The position numbers were made by a program, and so were the translations under genes. The notes under the pieces were generated by a model. The model was not told where the DNA came from, did not search any database, and was given only the letters and a program-made list of their open reading frames with translations. This document shows positions 1 through 13,480 of a stretch of DNA of 64,000 bases, piece after piece. Within the stretch, counting starts at the first letter, position 1; the number at the start of each line of letters is the position of its first letter. This DNA comes from Planctomycetota bacterium (GTDB lineage: Bacteria; Planctomycetota; UBA8108; SXIK01), in NCBI GenBank assembly GCA_965223845.1, contig CBDCXR010000004.1:7360001-7424000 (forward strand). Direction: 5' to 3'.

Positions 1-23
1 GAGTTCCTTCGGGGGAGTGGAGA

Positions 24-494
24 TCATGGCTTCCCCTCCCCGTCAGGATCGCTCGCAGCGCCTACGTACTGCCACACCTTCAGCTCGCGGCTATGGGATT
101 GCCGACGACGGCTCTTGACTCGCTCTCCGGTGAAGACCCAGCAACGTTGCTTGAACAGGCTTCCAGCGGCGTTGCCCAGATCGGAGTACCGAAGCCCGTC
201 GCTTTCCAGGGCGACGCAAACGTCCTCGGCTGTGCATCGTCGGTCAGCGCGTGACAGGGCTATGCGAACCGATACCTTCCTCGCGTACTGTAGTGCGTCA
301 CGATGGTTTCGTGCCGCCCGCTCCATCCCCTCGTGTTTCGCGACTTCGCTGGCGTCGCTGCGTCCGACATGACTCCTGCAAGTAGGTTCAGCGACTTCAT
401 CAAGCGCGTCGCGCAATTCGTCGAGCTGCTGCGCTGAGAGACCAGAGAGCAAGTCTCGAACGCTCTGACGAAGAGGGTCTTGGGGAGCTGTCAC
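24..494 (-). CDS. Phage/satellite-like hypothetical protein
   Basis: 156-aa ORF. GTG start after a strong RBS (AAGGGAGGT), overlapping the stop of the upstream ORF (GTGA). Its C-terminal TAEDV...NAAGSLF...SRR..SHSR...W pattern resembles phage hypothetical proteins. Confidence 0.65.
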   Translation of the reverse strand: MTAPQDPLRQSVRDLLSGLSAQQLDELRDALDEVAEPTCRSHVGRSDASEVAKHEGMERAARNHRDALQYARKVSVRIALSRADRRCTAEDVCVALESDGLRYSDLGNAAGSLFKQRCWVFTGERVKSRRRQSHSRELKVWQYVGAASDPDGEGKP

Positions 495-694
495 GCTGCA
501 CCTCCCTTCTCACATCGCCCGAATGGCGAGGTCAGGAAGGTGAAGAAGCGATTAGCGTCAACCGCCCAGCAGTGAACGCCTTGGACGAGGCATAAAAAAA
601 GCCCGGAGCAGGATGTCAAACCCTCGACCGCAAAGCGGCTCCGGGCGCGGTGTTCAAATTCTATGCTGCTGGGGATCGATCTTGGGTTTGACAT
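491..694 (-). CDS. Small, possibly leaderless ORF (67 aa) running through the c4-like RNA
   Basis: ATG at 694 lies 5 nt after a TAGTAT -10 box (705-700). The ORF ends in EKGGAA and is translationally coupled to 24..494. Confidence 0.35.
   Translation of the reverse strand: MSNPRSIPSSIEFEHRARSRFAVEGLTSCSGLFLCLVQGVHCWAVDANRFFTFLTSPFGRCEKGGAA
594..646 (-). ncRNA. c4/CI-like structured antisense RNA or attenuator
   Basis: Closing stem GCCCGGAGC/GCTCCGGGC, internal hairpins CCGC-TTT-GCGG and AGGG-TTTGACA-TCCT, then a U7 tract. The loop region is perfectly complementary over 11 nt to the upstream ATGTCAAACCC (694-684). Confidence 0.5.
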
Positions 695-939
695 ACGCAA
701 TACTACGCGACCCTGACGGCGATTCCCAAAGCTTAGGGCGATGTGTGCTTTCATTCGCTCTATGCGTCGATGACCGCCAATCCGTTTTCTCCCGCCTATC
801 TCTTAAGTCTCGGGGCGGTCTCTCATCTTCTACTTAGCGAACGCCTGGCAACGCCTATCGACGCATTACAAGCGGCTCCGATCGTGGGGTACGCTTACGT
901 GAGGCTGATGCCTCTACGCGAACGGTTTGGAACTGACGA

Positions 940-1557
940 ATGGCATCACGAACAACTCGCGAAAGACGAGCTGCGCAGGGAAGATGCGTCGCCTGCGGAG
1001 AATCGAAGGCGCAGCCGGAGCGGCGACTGTGCTCGCCATGCCGGAGCGCTCTGGACAGGGTGAAAGTCTTGGCTCGCGCTCGTGGTTGGCGCGATGACCG
1101 ACCGCACTCCTCGATGCGCAAAGCGATGACGAAGCAGGAGGCGCGTCAGCGAAAACTCTGGAGAGCCGACGAACGACGTTTACGTCGGTCCAGGGAATCT
1201 GAAGCGGTAGTCGAACGTCAGGGGGCGGGCAAGAAGACGCTGGTCGGGGAGGATTCGACATCGCACGTCGCCAAGGCGGGGACCAGTACGGCTCAGGCAG
1301 CGACACCGGTTCCGCCGTCGAATGCGCCTGTCGTGTCTCCAACGTTGACAGAAGGAGAATCGGAGCAACGGATTTGGGAGACCAACCAAGCCTATTGGGA
1401 ACGGATTCGTGGCGAAACGGCTCACGATCTCGCAGCTCGCCTTCTTCGCGGAGGGCATGACGAACAGCGGCTCGTCACGCTCGTGTGCCGTCGATATGTG
1501 ATCCGCGCTGAAGTCGCGGAGGGAATCGTTGACCGCGCTTGGGATGAGGTTGAATGA
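940..1557 (+). CDS. Hypothetical protein with N-terminal CxxC...CxxC putative zinc finger
   Basis: 205-aa ORF with CVAC...CSPC. ATGA overlap with the next gene. Confidence 0.5.
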   Translation: MASRTTRERRAAQGRCVACGESKAQPERRLCSPCRSALDRVKVLARARGWRDDRPHSSMRKAMTKQEARQRKLWRADERRLRRSRESEAVVERQGAGKKTLVGEDSTSHVAKAGTSTAQAATPVPPSNAPVVSPTLTEGESEQRIWETNQAYWERIRGETAHDLAARLLRGGHDEQRLVTLVCRRYVIRAEVAEGIVDRAWDEVE

Positions 1558-2252
1558 AGGGGCAGCGAATGATGCCGAAGTTGGAAGACGCTTTTGAACT
1601 GACAGCGCGAGAAGCTTGGAACCGCAGCTCCCTTGAGGAACGATCGACCTTCAAGCGCGGTCCCTACCAGCTCAGCGTTGCGCTTGAACGTCGGGACGGC
1701 AGCGAATCGAAGCGTGTCGTCGTGAAGTACGCCCTCGCAGACGAATGCGGAAGCCAGATTCTGTCGGAGCGCGAGCAGGAACTCGTTGTCGATGATTGCC
1801 CGCGTCAGTTCGGTGGTTCGGAGCCGCTTCTTCGATGCCCAAGCTGTTCGCGGCGCTGTCGTGTGCTGTTCATGCATCCGAGTGCAACGCGGTTCTCATG
1901 TCGGGAGTGTTCGGCGCTGTCACACGGCAAGCGCGAACGTAGACGAAAGCGTGGCAGGGTAAGACTCGACTCGTCCGAGATCGAGGAATTGTTGGTGAAT
2001 TGGAAGCGCCCAGCCCCAGATCCGCTCACGAATCTGATTCAAGCGCTACTCGCCTGTCCTCCCGAGGTGGGAGCTACCGGATACAGAGCGATCGAACCCT
2101 TCATCATCAGCAAGTATCAAGCGTTCCTGGCGGACCAAGCGAGACTTGCCGAGCGCGATCAATCCGAGCTGGACGCGACGCTGCGGCGCTATCGGGAAAT
2201 CTTGAAACGACTGGAGTCTGACAGCGCGGCGTCAGACGGGTGCCCTCAGTGA
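1554..2252 (+). CDS. Mobile-element conserved hypothetical zinc-ribbon protein
   Basis: FGG...LRCPSCSRRCRVLF...FSCRECSALSH pattern, typical of hypothetical proteins in integrated elements. RBS GAGG upstream. Confidence 0.65.
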   Translation: MKGQRMMPKLEDAFELTAREAWNRSSLEERSTFKRGPYQLSVALERRDGSESKRVVVKYALADECGSQILSEREQELVVDDCPRQFGGSEPLLRCPSCSRRCRVLFMHPSATRFSCRECSALSHGKRERRRKRGRVRLDSSEIEELLVNWKRPAPDPLTNLIQALLACPPEVGATGYRAIEPFIISKYQAFLADQARLAERDQSELDATLRRYREILKRLESDSAASDGCPQ

Positions 2253-2316
2253 ATCCATCGAAATCCACTTGTTGTCTTCACCCGTGCCGGATCGGTCGAA
2301 CGCCACGGTCGGCACT

Positions 2317-3357
2317 TTACTCCGGTGTTGGAGAGCTTTGCAGCACACCCGAATCTTCGCCCTCCACCGGGCGCAAAGCGGATCGCGCAAGGTGTTGCTT
2401 CATCTCGTCCTCGCTCAGCCGGCGGATATCCGACTCGCGGATATTCTCGTGGAAGCCGCAGCTTAGCGCGCCTGCATGCTTCGCCCACGGTTTCTCGAAA
2501 TGGTCGTCGTCCTGGGGTCTCGTGAACTGCACCGTCGCCGGATCGACCCCGCCACGGATCTTCAGAAACGACTGAAGGTTTCTGATTGATAGCGCGAGCA
2601 TCATGAGACCGTGCGCGACGTTTTCGACATCCCAGTTGAGGCTGTGTTCCTTGACGCGGAAATGTGGGTCACGCTTGCCTGCTGGACTCCCGTCTATGGG
2701 GGCGGCTTCATGGAAAGTGCTGCCCCATCGGCTGCTTCCGAGGCTGCTCATGTTTTCGAGTGCAGCCGGTATTCCTGGTGTCTCTTCCAGCCCAAACCGT
2801 AGCTCGAAGCCACCAGGTCGGATTCTCAACCCATGCTTCGCGCAATTGTACTCGCGGGTGTGGAGGTGATTCTGAAAATCACTCCCGAACCGACGCCACA
2901 GGATCGAGAACAACTCTCGCGTTTTTTCGAGTTTTGCTTCGTCATCGTAGGAGAAGAGAAGGACTCGGCTGGCAACGTCTGCCCACGAGACCCGTTCAAG
3001 TCCGAGACGATTCAGAAGGCGGTCACCGACATCGAGTGCGTTCAGAATCTCTCGTAGGTGGCGCGGTTGGCACTTCTGAAACCAACCCACCACGCATTCC
3101 GGGGCTTGAATCGACGCACCAAGAAGCATGAAGAACGTTTCGAGCGCATGGTGGTAGCCCGACCGCATTGACATTGCGGCGTAGTGGCGTTCGTCGCATT
3201 CCACTTTCTCGATGTGTGTGGTAGCCAGATACTCGAAGTACGCCGGGTCGATGCTCTCGACGAAAGATAAGTTGCGACGGGTCAGGTCGCCGTCCCACAT
3301 ACAGTAGGCTCGGTCAACAACCAGGAAAGGCGCGCCTTCCATCGAATGATTCTCCAT
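2317..3357 (-). CDS. Hypothetical protein, possible divergent HEPN-like domain
   Basis: 346-aa ORF, largely helical, with an EYNCAKHG motif reminiscent of the HEPN R/N-x4-H site. The function is inference. Confidence 0.7.
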   Translation of the reverse strand: MENHSMEGAPFLVVDRAYCMWDGDLTRRNLSFVESIDPAYFEYLATTHIEKVECDERHYAAMSMRSGYHHALETFFMLLGASIQAPECVVGWFQKCQPRHLREILNALDVGDRLLNRLGLERVSWADVASRVLLFSYDDEAKLEKTRELFSILWRRFGSDFQNHLHTREYNCAKHGLRIRPGGFELRFGLEETPGIPAALENMSSLGSSRWGSTFHEAAPIDGSPAGKRDPHFRVKEHSLNWDVENVAHGLMMLALSIRNLQSFLKIRGGVDPATVQFTRPQDDDHFEKPWAKHAGALSCGFHENIRESDIRRLSEDEMKQHLARSALRPVEGEDSGVLQSSPTPE

Positions 3358-3499
3358 TCACTTCTCTGCTCAGTGCTATTGCCAACTGGTAGCCTAACAC
3401 CGATTCTCGCGCTTGTCCCGAATTGCGCTGCAACCGGCGTGCCACAGCATTTTTTGGTGCTAACGAACAATAGGGTTCCCTCTTGGACGCTATGACACC

Positions 3500-4276
3500 A
3501 TGATGATATGCTTGTCTGACACCTCAGAGAAAGAGTCCGTGAACAATACTGCCGCCTGCGACAACAACCGTGCCGTCGCCTATGTCCGCGTTAGCACTGA
3601 CGAGCAAGCCCAGGAGGGTGTGAGCCTGGCTCTCCAGGAGCGTCACGTCCGAGTGTATTGTGACCTGAAGGGGCTTGAACTCGTCGATATCATTCGGGAC
3701 GAGGGGATCTCAGCGTCGAAACCCCTCAGCGACCGTCGTGGTGGAGCGGAATTTCTGCGGACTCTCGCCTCGGGCGAAATCGCAAACGTGATCTCGCTCA
3801 AATTGGATCGGTTCTTTCGGAGCGCGTCCGACGCGCTCAACGAGACCAAGCGTTGGGATAAGGCTGGGGTTGCCCTTCATCTCGTGGACCAGGGCGGGGC
3901 GACCATCGACACGAAGAACTCGACGGGGAAGCTGTTCTTCACGCTCCTCGCGGCAATGGCTGAGTTCGAGCGGAACTTGATCTCCGAACGGACTACAGCG
4001 GCTATGCGACACCTTAAGACAGTGCGCCGAGCATACTCGCCGACGCCCTTCGGCTTCGACCGGATTGACGACGAACTCCGGGAGAATGCGGACGAACTCC
4101 GGGTCGTCAAACGAATCCGGGAGATGCGAGCCGGCGAATTGTCGCTCGGCAAGATCGCTGCCACTCTGAACCGGGAAGGTGTCCCCACGAAGACGGGGAA
4201 GAAGTGGCATGGGAGCACGGTCCACTATATTCTTCGGAACCAGCTCTACCAGGAGGTCGGAGTCGCTTCGGACTAA
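3500..4276 (+). CDS. Serine recombinase (resolvase catalytic domain plus recombinase DNA-binding domain)
   Basis: AYVRVST catalytic Ser motif, LDRFFRS, AEFERNLISERT, PFGF, and a C-terminal SLGKIAATLN...W motif. The true start may be GTG 3539. Confidence 0.93.
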   Translation: MMICLSDTSEKESVNNTAACDNNRAVAYVRVSTDEQAQEGVSLALQERHVRVYCDLKGLELVDIIRDEGISASKPLSDRRGGAEFLRTLASGEIANVISLKLDRFFRSASDALNETKRWDKAGVALHLVDQGGATIDTKNSTGKLFFTLLAAMAEFERNLISERTTAAMRHLKTVRRAYSPTPFGFDRIDDELRENADELRVVKRIREMRAGELSLGKIAATLNREGVPTKTGKKWHGSTVHYILRNQLYQEVGVASD

Positions 4277-4502
4277 CGGATCGCGGACGCCCCGCCGCTG
4301 AAGGGGTGAACAGAATTTCCGTGCGTCCCAATCCGGTTCCCCGCGCTCGGGACCCGCAACGGCGACAACTGTTTCTTTCGCGGGCGTGAGTGGAACCGTC
4401 AAGGTTTATTCCCCCGGCGGAGTGCTCGATTGCCGTCAAGGGACAGGGGGACTAAAGTACCCATTGGCTCATGTTGGAAGCGACACTGGCTCGAATCGGC
4501 TA

Positions 4503-5897
4503 ATGCTACTCACAATAACGAACAGAACTCCTGTTGCGACGGATCTCGGGTTTCTTCTACACAAGAACCCCTCGCGGCGTCAGTCCTTCAATCTTGCCTA
4601 CGGCAGAGCCCACGTGTTCTACCCAGAAGCGTCAGAGGAACGCTGCACCGCCGCACTCCTTCTGGACGTGGACCCCATCGGCTTGGTGCGGAACCGTAGG
4701 GGACCCGCCGGGGAAGGGTACACACTCGCTCAGTACGTCAACGACCGCCCCTACGTCGGTTCGTCACTTCTCAGCGTCGCCATCGCGCAGGTCTACGGTA
4801 CAGCACTTCAGGGACGCAGCAAACAACGGCAGGAACTCGCCGAGCAGCCCCTTTCGCTTGCGGCACGGCTCGCCGTTCTTCCCTGTCGAGGTGGGGAGGT
4901 CTTTCTGCGAAAGCTTTTTGAGCCGTTGGGCTACGAGGTCAGCGCGACACGCCATGTACTCGACGAGCAGTTCCCCGACTGGGGAGAGAGTTCTTACTTT
5001 ACGGTAGACATCGAGGGCGAAGTCCGCCTCCAGGACCTTTTGAGCCACCTCTACGTGCTGATCCCGGTTCTCGACAACGACAAGCACTACTTCGTCTCTC
5101 AGGACGAAGTGGAGAAGCTACTCAAGCGCGGCGAAGGGTGGCTGGCATCGCACCCCGCACGTGATGAGATCACGCGGCGGTTCTTGAAACACCAGAAGGG
5201 GCTCGCGAGACAAGCTCTTGCCCGGTTGACGGAGGATTCCGACCCGGACGAAACGGATGAAGTTCAAGCGCAGGAAGAAGCAGAAGTCGAGGAGACCATC
5301 AGCCTCAATGAGCAGCGCATGGGGTCGGTGGTAGCCGCGTTGCGAGGATGCGGGGCGAAGACCGTTATCGACTTGGGTTGCGGGGAGGGAAAGCTCCTTC
5401 AGGAGCTGTTCAAGGACCGCTCGTTTGAGAAAGTTGTCGGAATGGATGTGTCCATTCGGGCGCTTGAGAAGGCGCAAGCCAGGCTTCGATGGGATCGTCT
5501 GCCCGACATTCAAAAGAGTCGCATCGCCCTCTTCCAGGGCTCGCTGATGTACCGAGACCGGAGACTGGAGGGTTTCGATGCTGCTGCCGTTGTCGAAGTC
5601 ATCGAACATCTCGATCCGCCACGACTCGCTGCGTTCGAGCGCGTGGTCTTCGAGTTTGCCCGTCCCCGCGCTGCCGTCGTGACCACACCGAATGTCGAGT
5701 ACAACGTCAAGTTCGAGACGCTTCCGGCGGGACGATTTCGCCACCGCGACCATCGGTTCGAGTGGACTCGAAGTGAGTTCCAGGGCTGGGCAGAAAACGT
5801 GGCGGCTCGATTCGGGTACCGAGCACGGTTTCTCCCGGTCGGAACCGAGCTGGCAGACGTGGGCTCTCCGACCCAGATGGCGGTGTTCGAGCGATGA
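4503..5897 (+). CDS. hen1: 3'-terminal RNA ribose 2'-O-methyltransferase Hen1
   Basis: N-terminus MLLTITN...ATDLGFLLHKNP, YVNDRPY, SAM motif DLGCGEG, EVIEH, TTPNVEYN, RHRDHRFEWTR. Start reassigned to ATG 4503. Confidence 0.96.
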   Translation: MLLTITNRTPVATDLGFLLHKNPSRRQSFNLAYGRAHVFYPEASEERCTAALLLDVDPIGLVRNRRGPAGEGYTLAQYVNDRPYVGSSLLSVAIAQVYGTALQGRSKQRQELAEQPLSLAARLAVLPCRGGEVFLRKLFEPLGYEVSATRHVLDEQFPDWGESSYFTVDIEGEVRLQDLLSHLYVLIPVLDNDKHYFVSQDEVEKLLKRGEGWLASHPARDEITRRFLKHQKGLARQALARLTEDSDPDETDEVQAQEEAEVEETISLNEQRMGSVVAALRGCGAKTVIDLGCGEGKLLQELFKDRSFEKVVGMDVSIRALEKAQARLRWDRLPDIQKSRIALFQGSLMYRDRRLEGFDAAAVVEVIEHLDPPRLAAFERVVFEFARPRAAVVTTPNVEYNVKFETLPAGRFRHRDHRFEWTRSEFQGWAENVAARFGYRARFLPVGTELADVGSPTQMAVFER

Positions 5898-8482
5898 AAG
5901 TCACGGTACCCGAGCTTTCTCTCGTTATTCTGATGGGACCTTCCGGGTCAGGGAAGTCTACGTTTGCACGGAAGCACTTCTTGCCGACCGAAGTCCTGAG
6001 TTCTGATTACTGTCGAGGACTCATATCGGACGACGAGAACGATCAAACCGTCACGGATCATGCCTTCGAGCTGCTTCACTTCATCGCGGCGAAGCGCTTG
6101 ACGAAGAAACGGCTTACGGTCATCGATGCGACGAACGTGCACGCGGAAGACCGCAAGAAACTTGTCGCCCTCGCCCGTGAGTATCACGTCCTTCCTGTCG
6201 CGATCGTCCTCAACCTGCCTGAAAGGCTCTGTCAGGACAGGAACAAGGAGCGCTCCGATCGGAACTTCGGTCCGCACGTCATCAACCAGCAGCGTCGGGC
6301 TCTGAGGAGGTCTCTCAGAACCCTGAAGAAGGAGGGCTTTCGCCACACGTTCGTCTTCAAGACGCCGGAGGAAGTCGAGGGTGCCACCCTCGAACGCACC
6401 AAGCTCTGGACGGACCGGCGTGACGAGCACGGACCGTTCGACATCATCGGCGACGTTCACGGTTGCTACGACGAGCTGGAGGAATTGCTCGGGACGCTCG
6501 GCTACGGAGCGACTGAGCGAGAGCCCGCAGGTCCTCTGGAATCCTCGCGGGTATACACACACCCTGACGGTCGAAAGATCGTGTTTGTCGGCGATCTCGT
6601 CGATCGTGGACCACGGAGTCTCGATACTCTCCGGCTTGCCTACACGATGGTGAAGGATGGTCTCGCGATCTGCGTGCCCGGAAACCACGACATCAAATTC
6701 TTGCGAAAGCTTCGTGGGAAGAACGTCCAGATCACGCACGGGCTTGCGGAAACGTTGGCTGAGCTGGAGTCTCTGCCGACCGACATCCGTCCGGGATTCG
6801 AGCAGGAAGCAGCGCGCTTCATCGACGGGCTCGTGAGTCACTTTCTTCTCGACGACGGCAAGCTTGTGGTCGCGCACGCCGGAATGCGGGAGGACATGCA
6901 AGGACGAGCGTCTGGGAAGATCCGCGAGTTCGCTCTGTTCGGCGAGACTACCGGCGAGACCGACGAGTTCGGGCTTCCCGTGCGACACGATTGGGCGTCA
7001 GAGTACCGGGGAAGTGCGATGGTCGTGTACGGTCATACTCCGATACCTGAGCCGGAGTGGCTGAACCGAACGATCAATATCGACACCGGATGCGTTTTTG
7101 GCGGGAAGCTGACCGCGCTTCGCTACCCAGAGAAGGAACTCGTTTCTGTCGAAGCGCGGCAGACCTACGCAGAATCGCGACGACCGTTTCTGCCGGAGGA
7201 GGAGCAGGCTCCGAAACTCTCAGCGCAGCACGAGCACGACGACGTTCTCTATGTCGAAGATGTGAGCGGGAAGAGGCAGGTTCACACCCGATTGCGGAAG
7301 GCGGTGACGATCCGCGAGGAGAACGCCATTGCTGCTCTGGAGGTCATGACTCGCTTTGCCGCGAACCCGAAGTGGTTGATCTACTTGCCACCCACGATGT
7401 CTCCGTCCGAGACCAGCAAGGAAGGCGGGCTTCTGGAGCATCCGCAAGAGGCGTTTAGCTTCTACCGAAGTCGAGGAGTCCCGAAGGTCGTCTGCGAAGA
7501 AAAGCACATGGGTTCGCGGGCTGTTGTGATCGTTTGTAAGGACGAAGGCGTCGCTCGCGAACGATTCGGCGTCGAGGCGGACGGGGCGGGGATCTGCTAC
7601 ACAAGAACCGGACGACGATTCTTCAATGACCGGGCGCTCGAATCTGAGTTCATCGATCGCGTGAAACGTGCGTTCGATGAGTCGGAGATGTGGGGCGAGT
7701 TGGACTCGGATTGGGCATGCCTTGATTGCGAGTTGATGCCGTGGTCCGCGAAAGCTCAGGAACTGCTTCAGCACCAGTACGCGGCTGTCGGTGCGTCGGC
7801 GAAGGCTGCACTGGCGGAAGTCCTTCCCGCTCTTCGAGGTGCCGTAGAACGCGACTGCGAGATTCAGGAGCTTGTTGACCGCTACTCGCATCGAGCGGAA
7901 CTCGTCACACAGTACACGCAGGCATACCGACAGTATTGTTGGTCAGTGTCCAGCGTCGATGACCTGAAGCTCGCTCCTTTCCATATTCTCGCGACCGAAG
8001 GCTCGACGCACGTAGACAAAGACCACGTGTGGCACATGGAGACGATCAAGCGATTCTGCGGAGTCGATGAGAGCCTACTCCTTTCGACGCCGTACCTCGT
8101 CGTCGATTTGATGGACCCCGCGAGCGAAGAGGCGGGAATTCGGTGGTGGGAGAAGCTGACCGGCGACGGCGGAGAGGGGATGGTCGTCAAGCCTCTCGAT
8201 TTCATCGCAGTCGGGAAGCGCGGATTGATGCAACCGGCAGTGAAATGCCGGGGTAAGGAGTACCTGCGGATCATTTACGGACCGGAGTACACCATCCCGG
8301 AGCACCTGGAGCGTCTGCGCGGGCGAGGGCTGTCGGCAAAGCGGTCGTTGGCGCTTCGAGAGTTCGCCCTGGGCGTCGAATCGCTCGAACGGTTCGTTCG
8401 GAAGGAACCGCTACGCCGCGTCCACGAATGTGTGTTCGGAGTTCTTGCGTTGGAGAGTGAGCCGGTCGATCCGCGCCTTTGA
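5894..8482 (+). CDS. pnkp: Polynucleotide kinase-phosphatase-ligase Pnkp
   Basis: P-loop GPSGSGKS, metallophosphoesterase motifs GDVHG/GDLVDRG/GNHD, and ligase motifs EEKHMGSR, EGMVVKP and KCRG. ATGA overlap with hen1. Confidence 0.96.
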   Translation: MKVTVPELSLVILMGPSGSGKSTFARKHFLPTEVLSSDYCRGLISDDENDQTVTDHAFELLHFIAAKRLTKKRLTVIDATNVHAEDRKKLVALAREYHVLPVAIVLNLPERLCQDRNKERSDRNFGPHVINQQRRALRRSLRTLKKEGFRHTFVFKTPEEVEGATLERTKLWTDRRDEHGPFDIIGDVHGCYDELEELLGTLGYGATEREPAGPLESSRVYTHPDGRKIVFVGDLVDRGPRSLDTLRLAYTMVKDGLAICVPGNHDIKFLRKLRGKNVQITHGLAETLAELESLPTDIRPGFEQEAARFIDGLVSHFLLDDGKLVVAHAGMREDMQGRASGKIREFALFGETTGETDEFGLPVRHDWASEYRGSAMVVYGHTPIPEPEWLNRTINIDTGCVFGGKLTALRYPEKELVSVEARQTYAESRRPFLPEEEQAPKLSAQHEHDDVLYVEDVSGKRQVHTRLRKAVTIREENAIAALEVMTRFAANPKWLIYLPPTMSPSETSKEGGLLEHPQEAFSFYRSRGVPKVVCEEKHMGSRAVVIVCKDEGVARERFGVEADGAGICYTRTGRRFFNDRALESEFIDRVKRAFDESEMWGELDSDWACLDCELMPWSAKAQELLQHQYAAVGASAKAALAEVLPALRGAVERDCEIQELVDRYSHRAELVTQYTQAYRQYCWSVSSVDDLKLAPFHILATEGSTHVDKDHVWHMETIKRFCGVDESLLLSTPYLVVDLMDPASEEAGIRWWEKLTGDGGEGMVVKPLDFIAVGKRGLMQPAVKCRGKEYLRIIYGPEYTIPEHLERLRGRGLSAKRSLALREFALGVESLERFVRKEPLRRVHECVFGVLALESEPVDPRL

Positions 8483-8495
8483 TCGGAGGTGTCGA

Positions 8496-9044
8496 TTGGA
8501 AACAGAGATTGCGAAATACTTCTGCGAACTGGGGCAGCTAAAGCGCGTGAAACGTTCGGGGTGGTGGCTCGCCGGCGTCCGAGATCCAGAGAGTGTAGCT
8601 GAGCATACGTTTCGCACAGCAGCCATCGCGTACGTCCTGGAAGGGGCGAACCCGGAGAAGGCTGCGGCTCTTGCGTTGTTTCACGACACGGCAGAGGCGC
8701 GGGTCAATGACATGCATCGGCTGGGGAAGAAATACGCGGACTGGACCGGCGTAGAGGAAAAGGTTGTGGAGGACCAAACGTCATCCCTCTCGGAGGAAGT
8801 TGCGGAAGGAATTCGAGGGCTTACTGCCGAATACAAGGAAGCGAAGTCCAGCGAAGCCGTAATCGCTCGTGACGCTGATCGTTTGGAGTGCTTGCTTCAA
8901 GCCCATGAGTACCACCAGCAAGGGGTAGCGGCGGCGGAGGAGTGGATTCAGAATTCGCGAGACGCCCTTAGTACGGATGCCGCCAAGAAGATCGCAACAC
9001 AGGTGTTGAGTCACGACGCAGCCAATTGGTGGGAAGAAGACTGA
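8496..9044 (+). CDS. HD-domain phosphohydrolase (YfbR/5'-deoxynucleotidase-like)
   Basis: LKRVKRSGW, ESVAEH, LFHD, DADRLE. TTG start 5 nt after GGAGGT, 13 nt after the pnkp stop. Confidence 0.9.
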   Translation: METEIAKYFCELGQLKRVKRSGWWLAGVRDPESVAEHTFRTAAIAYVLEGANPEKAAALALFHDTAEARVNDMHRLGKKYADWTGVEEKVVEDQTSSLSEEVAEGIRGLTAEYKEAKSSEAVIARDADRLECLLQAHEYHQQGVAAAEEWIQNSRDALSTDAAKKIATQVLSHDAANWWEED

Positions 9045-11369
9045 ATGCCGAGATACGATTTTTCGTCGCTCTCTTGGGCAGACTTTGAGGAGCTGTCTCG
9101 GGATCTCCTCCAAGAGGAACTGTCCCTAACGTTGGAGAGCTTCAAAGCCGGTCGAGACAAAGGCATCGACCTACGGCACTCCAAAGATCCAAGCGGCGAC
9201 TTGATTGTGCAGTGCAAGCACTACGCGGCTTCGGGAACCGAAAAACTCATTCGACACCTCCGCAGCAAGGAACAGCCAAAGGTCAAGAAGCTTCAGCCGA
9301 AACGCTACCTTCTCGTGACCTCAGCCGGATTGACTCCCTCGAACAAGGACGAGATCAAAGGGATCTTCGCCCCTTTCGTACACACGCCCCAAGACATTTT
9401 CGGCTGCGATGAAGTAAACAATCTGCTTGGGAAGTTCCCGGAAGTCGAAAAACGTCATTTTAAACTCTGGCTGAACAGCGAGCCAATTCTACAGCGAGTA
9501 CTGCACAGCGATGTTTTCGTCCAGTCTGGCTTCGAGGAGAAGGAGATCAGGAAAACCCTAAAAACCTACGTGCAGACGAAGAGTTTTGGCAAGGCGTTGA
9601 ACGTTCTGGAAGACAACAAGGCGTGCATAATCTCTGGCATACCCGGCATAGGGAAGACAACGCTGGCGAAAATCCTCCTTGTCCACTACCTCAGCAAGGG
9701 CTTCGAGCTTATCAAGATACGAAACGACATCTCAGAGGCGCAGAGAACGTACAAAGTGGACGCGAAGCAGGTGTACTACTATGACGACTTCTTGGGTCAG
9801 ACGAGCCTCCGGGAAAAGTTGAACAAGAACGAAGACTCAGGGCTTATCAATTTCATTCGCCATCTGGAAGGGTCAAAGAGTAAGCGATTCATCCTGACAA
9901 CGCGGGAGTACATACTCCAGCAAGCCAGGTCTGTGTACGAACCGCTCGCCCGTGCGGACCTCGATTGGTACAAGCTCGTCGTCAGCTTGTCAGACTACAG
10001 CAACTTCGACAAAGCGAAGATACTCTTGAACCACCTGGAAGCTGCCTGCCTTTCAAAGCCCCACATTGCGAGTCTGATGCAGGGGAGGACTTACCTCAAG
10101 ATCATCAAGCATCCGAACTACAATCCACGAATCATTGAGTCCATGACCGACCGGGCGCGGATAAGGTCGGTCCCCCCAGAATCCTACGCGGAGCACTTCT
10201 TGCAGAGCCTGACGAGCCCGTCAGAGATTTGGTCACACGCCTTTGAGAAGCAGATAAGCACGAACGCACAGGAAGTCCTGTTCGTGCTTGCGAGCCTGCC
10301 CAGAGAGGTATTCCTCGACGACTTGCGTGTGGCATTCGAGGCTTTTCACCAGAGTGTGTGCGACAAGTACAATAGAGCGCACAGTTCAACAGATTTTCAG
10401 GAGGCTTTGAGGGAGCTGGAGGGCAGTTTCACCATCACTGAGAGAATCGATAAGGATTTTGTGGTTCGGTTTCACAACCCCTCGGTGCGAGACTATCTCG
10501 AATCTCGATTGGAGAAGGACGACCAGGTCGTACGTTCTCTCGTTGTAAGCTGTCGCTTCTTTGAGCAGCTTTCCGGGCTATGGAATCTCGCGCCGGCAGG
10601 GAATCGAACGTACCCCATCAGGCGGTTCATTGCTCAAGATGTCTCGTCCTTTGTGGAAAGCGCCGAGCGGAGTTTCCTAACGCAGTCCTGTGGACTCATG
10701 ACCGACTGGACGCCTCGGGAGCGGAGGGCGTTAGATGTCGAAGATCGGTTGGAGACCATCGTTCGTGTGTGCGCAGAGATCTCGGACGCAACGCACGCGG
10801 ACGCTTTGATCAGGATGACGAGGATAGTGCTGAATCGATTAGCGGAAGGACAGGGAGAGAAGGAGAGCCTTGTGGCTCTCCTTGAATACCTGAATGGCGC
10901 GGACAAGTTTGGGCTTAAGACGGAAGAGCTAATAGGAACTGCCCGTTCATTCTTCATAGGTGATCTGCGCTCACTTGATGATTTTGAGCGTTTCCTCGAA
11001 TTTCGGGAAATTGTCCCAAACGCGGTCACGGACGACGACTTTGATCTGGCTACAAGGACGTTTAGCGACGTTCACTTTGACGATTGCTACAACGAGGTTT
11101 GGGAGGCGAATGATCCCGAACAACTTGAAGAGTATAGAACGCGATTGAGCAGCGTGGGCAACGCACTGTCGGTCAGTACGAGCGTGGGCGAGGAGAGGAT
11201 TTCGGAGAAAGTGAGCGAGCTGGAGGAACAACAAGCGAGATACGAGGATCACTTGTACGACGAGTACCGCGAGGAGCGAGCGTTCAAGGAGCAAGAAGAG
11301 CGTGGTACCGACACGGAGATCGACCGGCTCTTTGATACGCTGCGCGAGAGTGCGGAGCAGTCAGAATGA
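9045..11369 (+). CDS. Mrr-like restriction endonuclease fused to a STAND-type (nSTAND3-like) P-loop NTPase
   Basis: N-terminal FEEL...D.GIDL...VQCKHY (PD-(D/E)xK, QxK type), Walker A GIPGIGKTT, Walker B YYYDDFLG, FILTTR, then a long helical C-terminus. ATG directly abuts the HD stop codon. Confidence 0.88.
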   Translation: MPRYDFSSLSWADFEELSRDLLQEELSLTLESFKAGRDKGIDLRHSKDPSGDLIVQCKHYAASGTEKLIRHLRSKEQPKVKKLQPKRYLLVTSAGLTPSNKDEIKGIFAPFVHTPQDIFGCDEVNNLLGKFPEVEKRHFKLWLNSEPILQRVLHSDVFVQSGFEEKEIRKTLKTYVQTKSFGKALNVLEDNKACIISGIPGIGKTTLAKILLVHYLSKGFELIKIRNDISEAQRTYKVDAKQVYYYDDFLGQTSLREKLNKNEDSGLINFIRHLEGSKSKRFILTTREYILQQARSVYEPLARADLDWYKLVVSLSDYSNFDKAKILLNHLEAACLSKPHIASLMQGRTYLKIIKHPNYNPRIIESMTDRARIRSVPPESYAEHFLQSLTSPSEIWSHAFEKQISTNAQEVLFVLASLPREVFLDDLRVAFEAFHQSVCDKYNRAHSSTDFQEALRELEGSFTITERIDKDFVVRFHNPSVRDYLESRLEKDDQVVRSLVVSCRFFEQLSGLWNLAPAGNRTYPIRRFIAQDVSSFVESAERSFLTQSCGLMTDWTPRERRALDVEDRLETIVRVCAEISDATHADALIRMTRIVLNRLAEGQGEKESLVALLEYLNGADKFGLKTEELIGTARSFFIGDLRSLDDFERFLEFREIVPNAVTDDDFDLATRTFSDVHFDDCYNEVWEANDPEQLEEYRTRLSSVGNALSVSTSVGEERISEKVSELEEQQARYEDHLYDEYREERAFKEQEERGTDTEIDRLFDTLRESAEQSE

Positions 11370-11503
11370 CCGCCGACCAAAGCTCTGCGCCTCTATCGTT
11401 TTACGATCAAGGCTCGTCTGGACATCGTCGCGATTCAAGTTGGGAATCTGAATTGAAGTTGCTGGTGCCGTGGCTGCGTGTGACTATGACGATTCGGTGA
11501 GTC

Positions 11504-12109
11504 GTGTTGTTCGACCGGAGAGATGCAGTGAGCCGACGATCTGACGAAAGCGTACAGCCGCCCCCATCGGTTTCAGTGCCAGGGCTCAGCGTCGTCGAAC
11601 TGGTGATGGCGATCGAGGAGACTTTCGGGCTCGCCATTCCCGACAGCGACGCGGAGCGGATCGTCACCGTGGGTGATATCAAGAGGTACCTGAGGTCCCG
11701 TGTCCGGCGTGACTGTTCAACCGATTGTGCTTCGCAGCGAGCGTTTTACCGCCTGAGAAGCGTCGTTTGTGACGAGCTGTGCGTTTCGCCGAAGGTCGTA
11801 CAGCCCCGCCGGAGGTGGCTCGATGTTCTCCCTGCACGAGGTCGTCGTGTAGCGTGGAAGCGAATCGTAAGGAGGGCACGGCTTCCTCACCGCGCCCGTT
11901 GGAGCCTTCCGGTCCTTCGCTGGAACCTGCCGTCATTCCGAAACACGGTAGGATGGTCAGCGCGTCTACTGGCGGCGTCGGAGCCTCTGCCTGTCAAGGC
12001 TCCCAGTGAAGGCTGGACTCGCGATGAGATTTCGCGCACGGTTGACCGCTTGGTGATGGACGTGTGCGAAATCACGGACTTCTCCGACGAGGTTTTCCTC
12101 GCAGACTGA
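11504..12109 (+). CDS. Acyl-carrier-protein-like hypothetical protein, possibly degenerate
   Basis: [29 protein letters not shown] is ACP-like, but the canonical DS phosphopantetheinylation motif is absent (GLSVVEL). Start uncertain. Confidence 0.5.
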
Positions 12110-12232
12110 ACGAGCAGTTTGACGCCGATGTTCGGCGGGTACGATCGCAGTTCTTCGCGGTTTTCATCCGTCCCTTTCACGTCCCAGAACTTCGGACAAC
12201 TGCGCAGCGAATCCCGTAAGTCCTGGAAAGAG

Positions 12233-12309
<77 letters not shown>

Positions 12310-12436
12310 ACAAGGACACGTCGCGGTCGTCGAACGTAGCGGCGCCCTCGCGGGAGCGCAAGCGGTTTCGCGCGTCGCTCCGCGGGCTCTTCGCGACGTG
12401 GAATCGGCTTCCGGGCGCCGGTATGATTCTGGCGCT

Positions 12437-13480
12437 ATGGAGGTCTCGGAACGATCGAACGAGGCGGATTCTTCCGGCGCGCCTCGCCGGAGGAAGCGGA
12501 AGCGCCGGCGGAACCGTTTTCGCCGGGCGATCGGTCGCTACCTCGGCTACTTCGGTCTTCGCGCCGCGTACGCCATCGTCTCCCGCTTGCCGCTCCCGAT
12601 GGGGCTCGCTCTCAGTCGATGGGTCGGCCAGATTCTCTACTGCTTCGCGTTTCGCCTGCGGCGGACGGGCATCGAGAATCTCACGCACGTCTACGGGGAC
12701 TCGCGCTCGCCGAAGGAGATCCGCCGGATGGTGCGCGACGTGTTTCGGAACTCAGCCGCGACCGGGATCGAGTTCATGATCCTTCGTCGCTGGTCGACCG
12801 AGCGTCTTCGCGAAGCGTTTCCGGAAGTCGCCGCGGCGGTCGAGCGCCTCGAGCACGACGTGAGGGAGAGCGGTTCGGGGATCGTCGGCATCACGGCGCA
12901 CTTCGGCAACTGGGAGATGCTCTCCGTCCTGGTCAGTCGCTTCGCCCCGGGTTTGCTCGTCCCCGTCGCGAAGCCCGTCTACTTCGAGAAATACCAAGCT
13001 TTCGTTCACCGGCTGCGCACCGAGGACGGAATCGAAGTCATCTACAACGATGAATCGCCGCGAAAACTTTTCCGCGCCATTCGAAAGGGACAGTTGCTCG
13101 GTCTTCTCCCGGATCAGAACTTGAGAACGAACAGCGGAGTCTTCGTCGAGTTCTTCGGTCGACCCGCCTACACGGCGACCTTTCCAGTCGACATCGCGCG
13201 GAAGCTGAGCGTCCCGATGCTCTTTTGCGTTCTCGCGAGAACCGATCCCACGCTTCGATCCCGAGGCTACCGCATTCTCTATGAGCCGCCGTGGACCCCT
13301 CCCGGCGGGGATGATCTCGAAGCGAGCCGACTCGCTGCGACGGCGAAGTGGACCGCGATCACTGAGCGTGCGATCCGCGAGTCGCCGGTTCAGTGGTCGT
13401 GGTGCTACCGCCGGTGGAAGAACCAACCCGGGAATCCGCGGCTCCCGCACGCAAGCCGAACCGAGGCGCCGGCGACGTGA
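12437..13480 (+). CDS. Lipid A lauroyl/lysophospholipid acyltransferase (LpxL/HtrB family)
   Basis: HFGNWE, LLPDQ, VEFFGRPA, PVQWSW...RWK motifs. Confidence 0.88.
   Translation: MEVSERSNEADSSGAPRRRKRKRRRNRFRRAIGRYLGYFGLRAAYAIVSRLPLPMGLALSRWVGQILYCFAFRLRRTGIENLTHVYGDSRSPKEIRRMVRDVFRNSAATGIEFMILRRWSTERLREAFPEVAAAVERLEHDVRESGSGIVGITAHFGNWEMLSVLVSRFAPGLLVPVAKPVYFEKYQAFVHRLRTEDGIEVIYNDESPRKLFRAIRKGQLLGLLPDQNLRTNSGVFVEFFGRPAYTATFPVDIARKLSVPMLFCVLARTDPTLRSRGYRILYEPPWTPPGGDDLEASRLAATAKWTAITERAIRESPVQWSWCYRRWKNQPGNPRLPHASRTEAPAT

Follow-up and report, generated by a model that had tools for sequence, protein, structure and literature searches.

Does a compact array of four genes in a planctomycete genome form one undescribed defence system, or do two separate units lie next to each other there? 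The array is found in a stretch of 64,000 nucleotides (nt) of Planctomycetota bacterium DNA (GenBank assembly GCA_965223845.1, contig CBDCXR010000004.1, positions 7,360,001 to 7,424,000), which we call the window. It consists of hen1 and pnkp, the genes of an RNA repair pair, followed by a gene for an HD_3-family phosphohydrolase (the HD gene) and a gene for a protein that joins an Mrr-like nuclease to an nSTAND3 nucleoside triphosphatase (NTPase; the STAND gene). A sequence-only reading of the window had proposed a single candidate module of sensor-nuclease, nucleotide or end processing and recovery of damaged RNA. Our analysis points instead, with a probability of about 0.7, to two separable units on one mobile island, neither of which would depend on the other. 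These are a Hen1-Pnkp pair with an HD add-on, and a stand-alone Avs-like sensor-nuclease of the PADLOC family PDC-S73. The claim of one undescribed four-gene module did not hold up, as the combination did not recur elsewhere, the STAND gene was already catalogued as PDC-S73 and the HD link was confined to cassettes that are about 90% identical.

The identities first given to the four open reading frames (ORFs) were borne out by family models and Pfam domains. Hen1 had a Hen1_L domain at residues 1-242 (E 8.5e-113), the N-terminal domain that binds and activates the Pnkp ligase, and methyltransferase domains at residues 285-432, with the S-adenosylmethionine motif DLGCGEG at residue 290 and EVIEH at 365. 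Pnkp carried AAA_33 (residues 10-138), Metallophos (181-384) and PNKP_ligase (480-857) domains in one chain, with a P-loop at residue 15, GDVHGC at 186, GNHD at 263 and EEKHMGS at 535. In the HD protein the metal-binding H..HD..D motifs were found at residues 35, 62 and 125. The STAND protein matched Mrr_cat at residues 7-106 (E 1.7e-10) and nSTAND3 at residues 175-332 (E 1.7e-51), and its D..QCK motif (residue 55), Walker A (198) and Walker B (244) were invariant in an alignment of 30 relatives. The motifs found in the four proteins are those that we take to be catalytic for each family. Judged from sequence, hen1 and pnkp are a canonical RNA repair pair, and such a bacterial two-component Pnkp-Hen1 system is described in PMC3675462, PMC4411300 and PMC12776372.

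The four genes lie head to tail on the plus strand with full-length open frames and spacings of -4, +13 and 0 nt. The tight coupling claimed earlier (an ATGA overlap, a 13-nt gap with a ribosome-binding site and a stop codon abutting an ATG) was confirmed at all three junctions. The ATG of pnkp at 5894 overlaps the hen1 stop codon TGA (5895-5897) within ATGA at 5894-5897. The TGA of pnkp ends at 8482 and is followed by the 13-nt spacer (8483-8495), which holds a GGAGG site, and by the TTG start of the HD gene at 8496. The HD gene ends with TGA at 9042-9044, and the ATG of the STAND gene follows at 9045 without a gap. Such tight spacing is typical of operons, and the four genes are probably co-transcribed. 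Among runs recorded as RNA, none was found to contain window 4400-11400. A terminator scan gave 7 sites, as compared to 8.6 ± 3.4 in shuffled sequence, and thus no excess; a promoter scan likewise gave no excess of sites over shuffled sequence.

The lower guanine-plus-cytosine (GC) content noted earlier for the nuclease gene was confirmed (0.53 for the STAND gene as compared to 0.57-0.60 for the other three genes of the array), but its use as a hint of independent acquisition was not. GC at third codon positions (GC3) was alike in hen1 (0.69), pnkp (0.71), the HD gene (0.63) and the STAND gene (0.67), so the lower overall value would be due to amino-acid content, and low GC was rejected as a mark of separate acquisition. 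All four genes had a lower GC3 than the three core genes that were measured (0.78-0.81).

Whether HD and Mrr-nSTAND genes recur as partners of hen1 and pnkp was the test set beforehand. The pnkp loci came from 80 one-genome-per-species contigs and 80 metagenome contigs, each set being the best 80 of about 600 pattern matches. These 160 loci, from many phyla, were 50-71% identical to the window Pnkp and had flanks of up to 8-10 kb, with at least 1 kb downstream of pnkp in 134 and at least 3 kb in 109. A hen1 gene was present in the same locus in 131 of them. Profile hidden Markov models built from 120 HD relatives and 30 STAND relatives (E<=0.01), both of which matched their positive controls, detected neither family in any of the 160. 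In 400 sampled genomes of the phylum, a further 28 full-length pnkp loci were examined over 1.5 kb on each side, and neither gene was found in them. Two relatives of the same class and order (G024 and G014; L097 and L098) had pnkp loci in which phmmer and the HD profile detected no HD gene and phmmer, run with the single protein only, no STAND gene. Combined, neither an HD nor an nSTAND3 gene turned up in the 190 pnkp loci from outside this lineage. With Pfam, an HD domain was detected in none of 120 ORFs in or beside pnkp operons.

The survey from the STAND side had the same outcome. In 83 loci of STAND relatives (4 + 79; flanks up to 10 kb; phmmer E<=1e-3, HD profile E<=0.01) no hen1, pnkp or HD gene was found. 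The commonest neighbour cluster of the family occurred in seven of the 83 loci, and the five members of it that were scanned were AAA_15 ATPases, three of them with an OLD-type Toprim domain. RhuM, a pair of an AAA protein and a subtilase, and an AAA_13 ATPase were among the other neighbours. Such neighbourhoods resemble defence islands, and no partner is constant among them. The 21 loci detected on viral contigs were almost all distant relatives of the phosphatase module alone, and no HD or STAND gene was present in any of the 21. Plasmid records held the STAND family in 52 cases and hen1-pnkp in 30, and no plasmid match reached the HD part.

The STAND protein matched PDC-S73 from end to end (residues 1-764 on profile positions 1-750 of 752). 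Its relatives of this type numbered 3717 proteins at E<=0.001 among 8000 candidates scored; they were of similar length, and the nearest was 44% identical. The AlphaFold2 model (mean predicted local distance difference test score, pLDDT, 81) showed an N-terminal alpha/beta nuclease fold, the NTPase, a winged helix at about residues 421-476 and an all-helical C-terminus at residues 480-774. The top Foldseek matches of this model were Avs4 bound to a phage portal (8dgf), SAMD9, Avs5 filaments (9nc9/9jap), plant NLRs and CED-4/Apaf-1; the matches to Avs proteins had E values of 3e-8 to 5e-7, with low template modelling (TM) scores of 0.26-0.33. The earlier description of the last gene as Avs-like was thus supported. 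No PADLOC Avs model matched at E<=0.01, and no solved chain was found by sequence. By profile match and predicted structure the protein is a PDC-S73 member, Avs-like and not an Avs. PDC systems are candidates proposed from being embedded in known defence systems, and Payne et al. (10.1101/2024.01.29.577857) call their 145 PDC systems untested. A full-text literature search found no paper naming PDC-S73. Residues 3-159 of the STAND protein (window 9045-9520) also matched the first 156 positions of the class I models that PADLOC holds for the Argonaute-associated 'Aga' proteins (E 2.2e-44 and 2.7e-32), and because of this match the effector module is taken to be common to different defence proteins.

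The HD protein matched a YfbR-like model with E 2.6e-12 and reached 38.5 bits in the NCBIfam 5'-deoxynucleotidase equivalog NF003009. As this is below the cutoff of 122, the protein is not a YfbR orthologue and belongs to the wider HD_3 family only. Its nearest solved structures were AF1432 (1yoy/1ynb, E 1e-23), human HDDC2 and an 'oxetanocin-like protein'. A second HD_3 paralogue, 56% identical to the island copy, is located off the island in the host genome (G000, C4:5337827-5338357; L279:4771-5367). Full-length relatives with 50-63% identity were present in 14 of 40 related genomes, most of those without pnkp, and G003, a genome of the same family and another genus, added a 26-residue remnant only. 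Around the three closest HD copies in the genome collection neither hen1 nor pnkp was found in the available flanks. In a maximum-likelihood tree the island copy was placed inside a clade with the copies of the order (support 100/99), and the second copy of the host in another subclade, where its branch is long and its position unsure. By these comparisons the HD family is common in this order as a stand-alone gene, and the island copy is a second copy and a lineage-specific add-on to hen1-pnkp.

The link between pnkp and the HD gene could be followed in sister copies of the cassette. Within the first 16 kb of the window, the part shared with G003 was limited to positions 4420-8571, where nucleotide identity was 89%. 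In this copy (L096:9309-15400) hen1 was whole, and pnkp was split by an insertion of about 1.5 kb with a DDE transposase gene. The 13-nt spacer, the TTG start and the first 25-26 or so HD codons were kept, and unrelated sequence followed, which by eye reads as remnants of an IS3-type transposase gene. The flanks differed from those of the window, and a tRNA-Asp gene lay 1.6 kb further on. Contigs from two runs of another study bridged pnkp into the HD gene with about 92% identity (window 5046-8758 and 7874-8758) and carried a 9-nt insertion behind 8637. In the runs X5, X6, X8 and X10, with small shares, there was almost no contig cover past window 8758 at 85% likeness or more, which is a hole in cover and no evidence of absence; one X8 contig of 1785 bases ran on for about 890 bases that were unlike the window. 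Taken together, hen1-pnkp-HD is, on nucleotide identity, a cassette of common descent within one lineage, with copies about 90% identical.

Other hen1-pnkp pairs have other company. A scan of 99 ORFs located either in the interval from hen1 to pnkp or immediately after pnkp gave as recurrent partners RlaP nucleotidyltransferases, a Thg1-like enzyme with a small kinase, DUF4291, ADP-ribosylglycohydrolase and a HEAT-repeat protein (Table 1), and the HD gene of the window was not among them. RlaP is named for its association with hen1-pnkp, according to PMC12776372.

In one metagenome locus (L219:2543-15509), a TrwC relaxase gene, hen1, a HEAT-repeat gene with a 4-nt overlap with hen1, pnkp and a gene for a 1647-residue NACHT protein were found on one strand. 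The N-terminus of the NACHT protein aligned with the Mrr-like domain of the STAND family with an hhalign probability of 56% (E 1.1e-4; residues 36-180 on 6-143, the GID and QCK motifs included), and the protein grouped with Mrr_cat clusters in an ESM Atlas feature search (score 0.97). In a search of the 160 pnkp loci with a profile of the Mrr-like domain, this protein was the top match, but with E = 4. No homologue of it was found in the available DNA of three loci that share the HEAT gene; this DNA extends 3.2 kb downstream of pnkp in L029 and about 1 kb in L026 and L231. With the window included, defence genes adjoined the pair or lay between its genes in four of 191 loci (PDC-S73, PDC-M38, Shedu and the Mrr-like NACHT gene). 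Such varied defence neighbours fit a placement of pnkp in variable islands and not a fixed partnership.

Several points weigh against two separate units. The packing is as tight as in an operon, and no terminator-like site was found between the genes. Composition gives no sign of a separate arrival either, as the STAND gene has a GC3 in the range spanned by hen1, pnkp and the HD gene. The G003 copy lost everything after HD codon 26 by a rearrangement, with insertion sequence (IS) remnants beside it; because this region was lost, the ancestral cassette may already have held the STAND gene. As only the best 80 of about 600 matches were sampled per survey, rarer arrangements can escape. In L219 the NACHT gene, with its Mrr-like N-terminus and from another STAND clade, lies 15 nt behind pnkp, and because that locus is independent of the window, a STAND nuclease directly behind pnkp would have arisen at least twice. 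Tight co-oriented packing without a predicted terminator, similar GC3 in all four genes and a second, independent array of hen1, pnkp and an Mrr-like STAND gene from another clade are also what would be expected of one four-gene defence module, in which the STAND protein would sense, the nuclease would act, and Hen1-Pnkp with the HD enzyme would repair and immunise host RNA after damage inflicted by the phage or by the module's own action, or would then reset the cell. We nevertheless regard such a module as improbable, and L219 is the main reason to give it some weight. The combination was found in none of the 190 pnkp loci outside the lineage, none of the 83 STAND loci and none of the three nearest HD loci, PADLOC lists the STAND family as a candidate of one gene and its neighbours vary, and the relatives that share the HEAT gene with L219 had no NACHT homologue in the available DNA. 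The Mrr-type effectors of Avs proteins with solved structures act by cutting DNA, damage that RNA repair would leave in place. A further proposal is that Hen1-Pnkp cassettes are repeatedly recruited to a place immediately in front of STAND sensors with an Mrr nuclease (of the nSTAND3 type in the window and the NACHT type in L219) and work together with them. An Mrr-like effector or a partner triggered by it would cut RNA and the pair would restore and immunise host RNA after infection, or the pair would shield the sensor-bearing element from tRNA-cutting rivals, with the HD enzyme as a third end-processing part in this lineage. By estimate and not by calculation, a STAND nuclease immediately after pnkp in two of some 190 loci would far exceed random genome placement, and would also be about the number expected if a fair share of hen1-pnkp cassettes ride on defence islands and mobile elements. 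L219 hints, weakly, at a tendency of repair cassettes and STAND nucleases to come together on mobile DNA, and the joint-action proposal itself we consider speculative and highly doubtful.

The first three genes could also be a true three-enzyme repair variant with the STAND gene as a separate unit, the HD enzyme serving in end processing (removal of a 2'-/3'-phosphate or a 5'-adenylate) or in local nucleotide turnover. The pnkp-HD junction with its GGAGG spacer and TTG start is kept in G003, the contigs of the other study run from pnkp into the HD gene, and the island HD copy retains H..HD..D despite the paralogue in the host. Other hen1-pnkp operons recruit RNA-end enzymes as well (RlaP in 11 loci, Thg1 with a kinase in four, ADP-ribosylglycohydrolase in two). 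However, the link occurs only among the copies that are about 90% identical, which indicates one event and not repeated selection, the HD gene was found in none of the 190 other pnkp loci and its family is otherwise stand-alone, and Pnkp retains its own kinase and phosphatase motifs. The nearest characterised relatives of the HD protein, which we take to be mononucleotide 5'-nucleotidases, include none that to our knowledge acts on RNA ends. This makes a dedicated three-enzyme variant unlikely, though still worth keeping in mind. It is hardly credible that the array is cargo in decay and no longer has a function. The sister copy in G003 is broken, with pnkp split by an IS and the HD gene cut after about 25 codons, and the island holds an IS91-type transposase and a truncated serine recombinase, but in the window none of the four full-length frames is interrupted, and the proteins align with their family models from one end to the other and have retained the catalytic motifs.

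In the reading with two separable units, the first unit would act as an RNA repair pair. Hen1 would 2'-O-methylate the junction nucleotide, so that the same ribotoxin could not cut there again. In this lineage the pair would have gained a copy of the stand-alone HD_3 phosphohydrolase that is common in the order. Co-expressed with the pair, the HD enzyme would hydrolyse nucleotides or terminal phosphates and, because Pnkp retains all of its own healing motifs, would be dispensable for repair. In the second unit the C-terminal helical region may sense a phage cue, upon which the nSTAND3 NTPase would drive oligomerisation, and oligomerisation would switch on the N-terminal Mrr-type PD-(D/E)xK nuclease.

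The claim that the array lies inside a tRNA-integrated element was well founded. The island is 16.2 kb long and has at each border a copy of a 49-bp repeat that corresponds to the 3' half of a tRNA-Arg(CCT) gene; the two copies differ by one mismatch. A tyrosine integrase gene adjoins the left repeat, and GC is 0.52-0.62 between the repeats as compared to 0.64-0.68 outside. From left to right the island holds the tyrosine integrase gene, the IS91-type transposase gene, ORFs without a family, the truncated serine recombinase gene, the four genes and one further ORF (Table 1). The serine recombinase remnant is located upstream of the cassette, and homology with the G003 copy begins only past it, at 4420. 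PADLOC gave no match for nine other ORFs of the island. Pfam gave nothing for window 24-494(-), 491-754(-), 1422-1877(-), 1554-2252, 2240-2575 and 2317-3357(-), and for the ORF at 940-1557 a weak zinc-ribbon hint only (E 0.005). The ORF between the STAND gene and the tRNA gene may be a remnant. In an Rfam scan of window 1-13000 (E<=0.1) nothing but the tRNA was found.

Table 1. Features of the array and of its island, and recurrent partners of other hen1-pnkp pairs. Positions without a prefix are window positions.
Feature	Position	Strand	Evidence and remarks
hen1, 3'-terminal RNA ribose 2'-O-methyltransferase, 464 aa	4503-5897	+	TIGR04074 E 1e-217, 723 bits (cutoff 340)
pnkp, trifunctional polynucleotide 5'-kinase / 2',3'-phosphatase / RNA ligase, 862 aa	5894-8482	+	TIGR04075 E 0, 1426 bits (cutoff 750)
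GGAGG Shine-Dalgarno-like site	8484-8488	+	Read directly; in the 13-nt spacer upstream of the HD gene
HD gene, predicted HD_3-family metal-dependent phosphohydrolase, 182 aa, TTG start	8496-9044	+	HD_3 E 4.7e-29
STAND gene, Mrr-like nuclease, nSTAND3 NTPase and helical C-terminal region, 774 aa	9045-11369	+	PADLOC PDC-S73 E 1.9e-176
ORF between STAND gene and tRNA, 201 aa	11504-12109	+	PP-binding (carrier protein) fragment, E 2.7e-5, residues 28-63 only; no PADLOC match
tRNA-Arg(CCT)	12233-12309	-	ARAGORN; Rfam tRNA 67 bits; 3' 49 bp (12233-12281) are the right-hand attachment repeat
Left repeat copy	G000:C4:7356121 = L106:16121-16169		16.2 kb left of the tRNA repeat, 3.9 kb before the window start
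IS91-type transposase gene	L107:3172-4527	-	Left of the window, among island ORFs (L107:2023-4994)
Truncated large serine recombinase gene, 258 aa, remnant	3500-4276	+	Pfam Resolvase E 6.8e-32; Recombinase domain positions 2-54 of 102 only
RlaP nucleotidyltransferases	11 loci: L007, L038, L048, L054, L061, L079, L210, L212, L256, L265, L268		Sometimes two in tandem
Thg1-like enzyme with small AAA_33 kinase	4 loci: L030, L265, L268, L277		
DUF4291	2 loci		
ADP-ribosylglycohydrolase	2 loci		
HEAT-repeat protein	4 loci		2 by Pfam, 4 by homology

Single pnkp loci showed further neighbours. In L058:1702-3488 the two genes of PDC-M38A/B (an AbiL-like ABC ATPase and a DUF3226 protein) were found between hen1 and pnkp on the same strand, and in L060 a PIN-domain gene was present in the gap between hen1 and pnkp. 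In L071:10703-14842 a Shedu SduA gene (E 4e-49) was located directly downstream of pnkp and was followed by a gene for an 895-residue protein with a PHP domain and an ABC ATPase. A protein of 812 residues with a TOTE primase-like domain (PF22548, E 8e-93) and a helicase was encoded a few hundred bases upstream of hen1 in L063:5881-8319, and in L035 a KAP/NB-ARC/TPR protein was encoded 4.5 kb downstream of pnkp. An isolated pnkp remnant was detected in a genome of the same class (G036, L099:9840-10124); it covers the last 90 Pnkp residues with 80% identity, and no other part of the gene was present.

A single four-gene system would connect nucleases of the abortive-infection type with RNA repair and would supply the physiological role that bacterial Hen1-Pnkp still lacks. 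What the evidence shows instead is a small integrative island on which two kinds of cargo, both already known, lie next to each other. The locus thus offers a natural example of Hen1-Pnkp travelling as a cassette on mobile islands, sometimes against defence genes, which fits a role in conflicts. The intact and divergent PDC-S73 gene is suited to a first phage challenge of that family, and the lineage-specific HD_3 add-on is open to bench testing.

When compared with the Pnkp-Hen1 RNA repair system of Clostridium thermocellum and Anabaena variabilis, the pair in the window has the same full-length equivalog matches, the same adjacent, overlapping and co-oriented genes, and intact kinase, phosphatase, ligase and methyltransferase motifs. 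It differs in the HD_3 hydrolase gene directly behind pnkp, which was found in none of the 190 other pnkp loci surveyed. The partners that are common in other Pnkp-Hen1 operons, namely RlaP, Thg1 with a kinase, DUF4291, ADP-ribosylglycohydrolase and the HEAT protein, are absent here. With the YfbR-like 5'-nucleotidases (AF1432 1yoy, HDDC2 4dmb, yeast YGL101W 5yox and E. coli YfbR 2paq) the HD protein shares the HD_3 domain over its whole length and the H..HD..D motifs, whereas its score is below the YfbR cutoff and its gene is located behind pnkp on a mobile island.

The STAND gene resembles the PADLOC candidate PDC-S73 in its end-to-end model match, in being a single gene and in having no fixed partner, but it is divergent, with at most 44% identity to any protein found. 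Compared with the solved Avs proteins, it is far shorter (774 residues, as against 2028 and 1534 in the matched chains of Avs3 and Avs4), and with Avs4, to which we ascribe a nuclease effector, it has an effector of the same kind in common. An effector, a STAND NTPase and a helical C-terminal region are combined in one chain here as in Avs4 (8dgf), Avs3 (8dgc) and Avs5 (9nc9/9jap). Avs5 carries an nSTAND3 domain, as stated in 10.1101/2025.07.08.663546, and the NTPase of the window protein is of this same subfamily, joined to an Mrr-like effector where Avs5 has SIR2.

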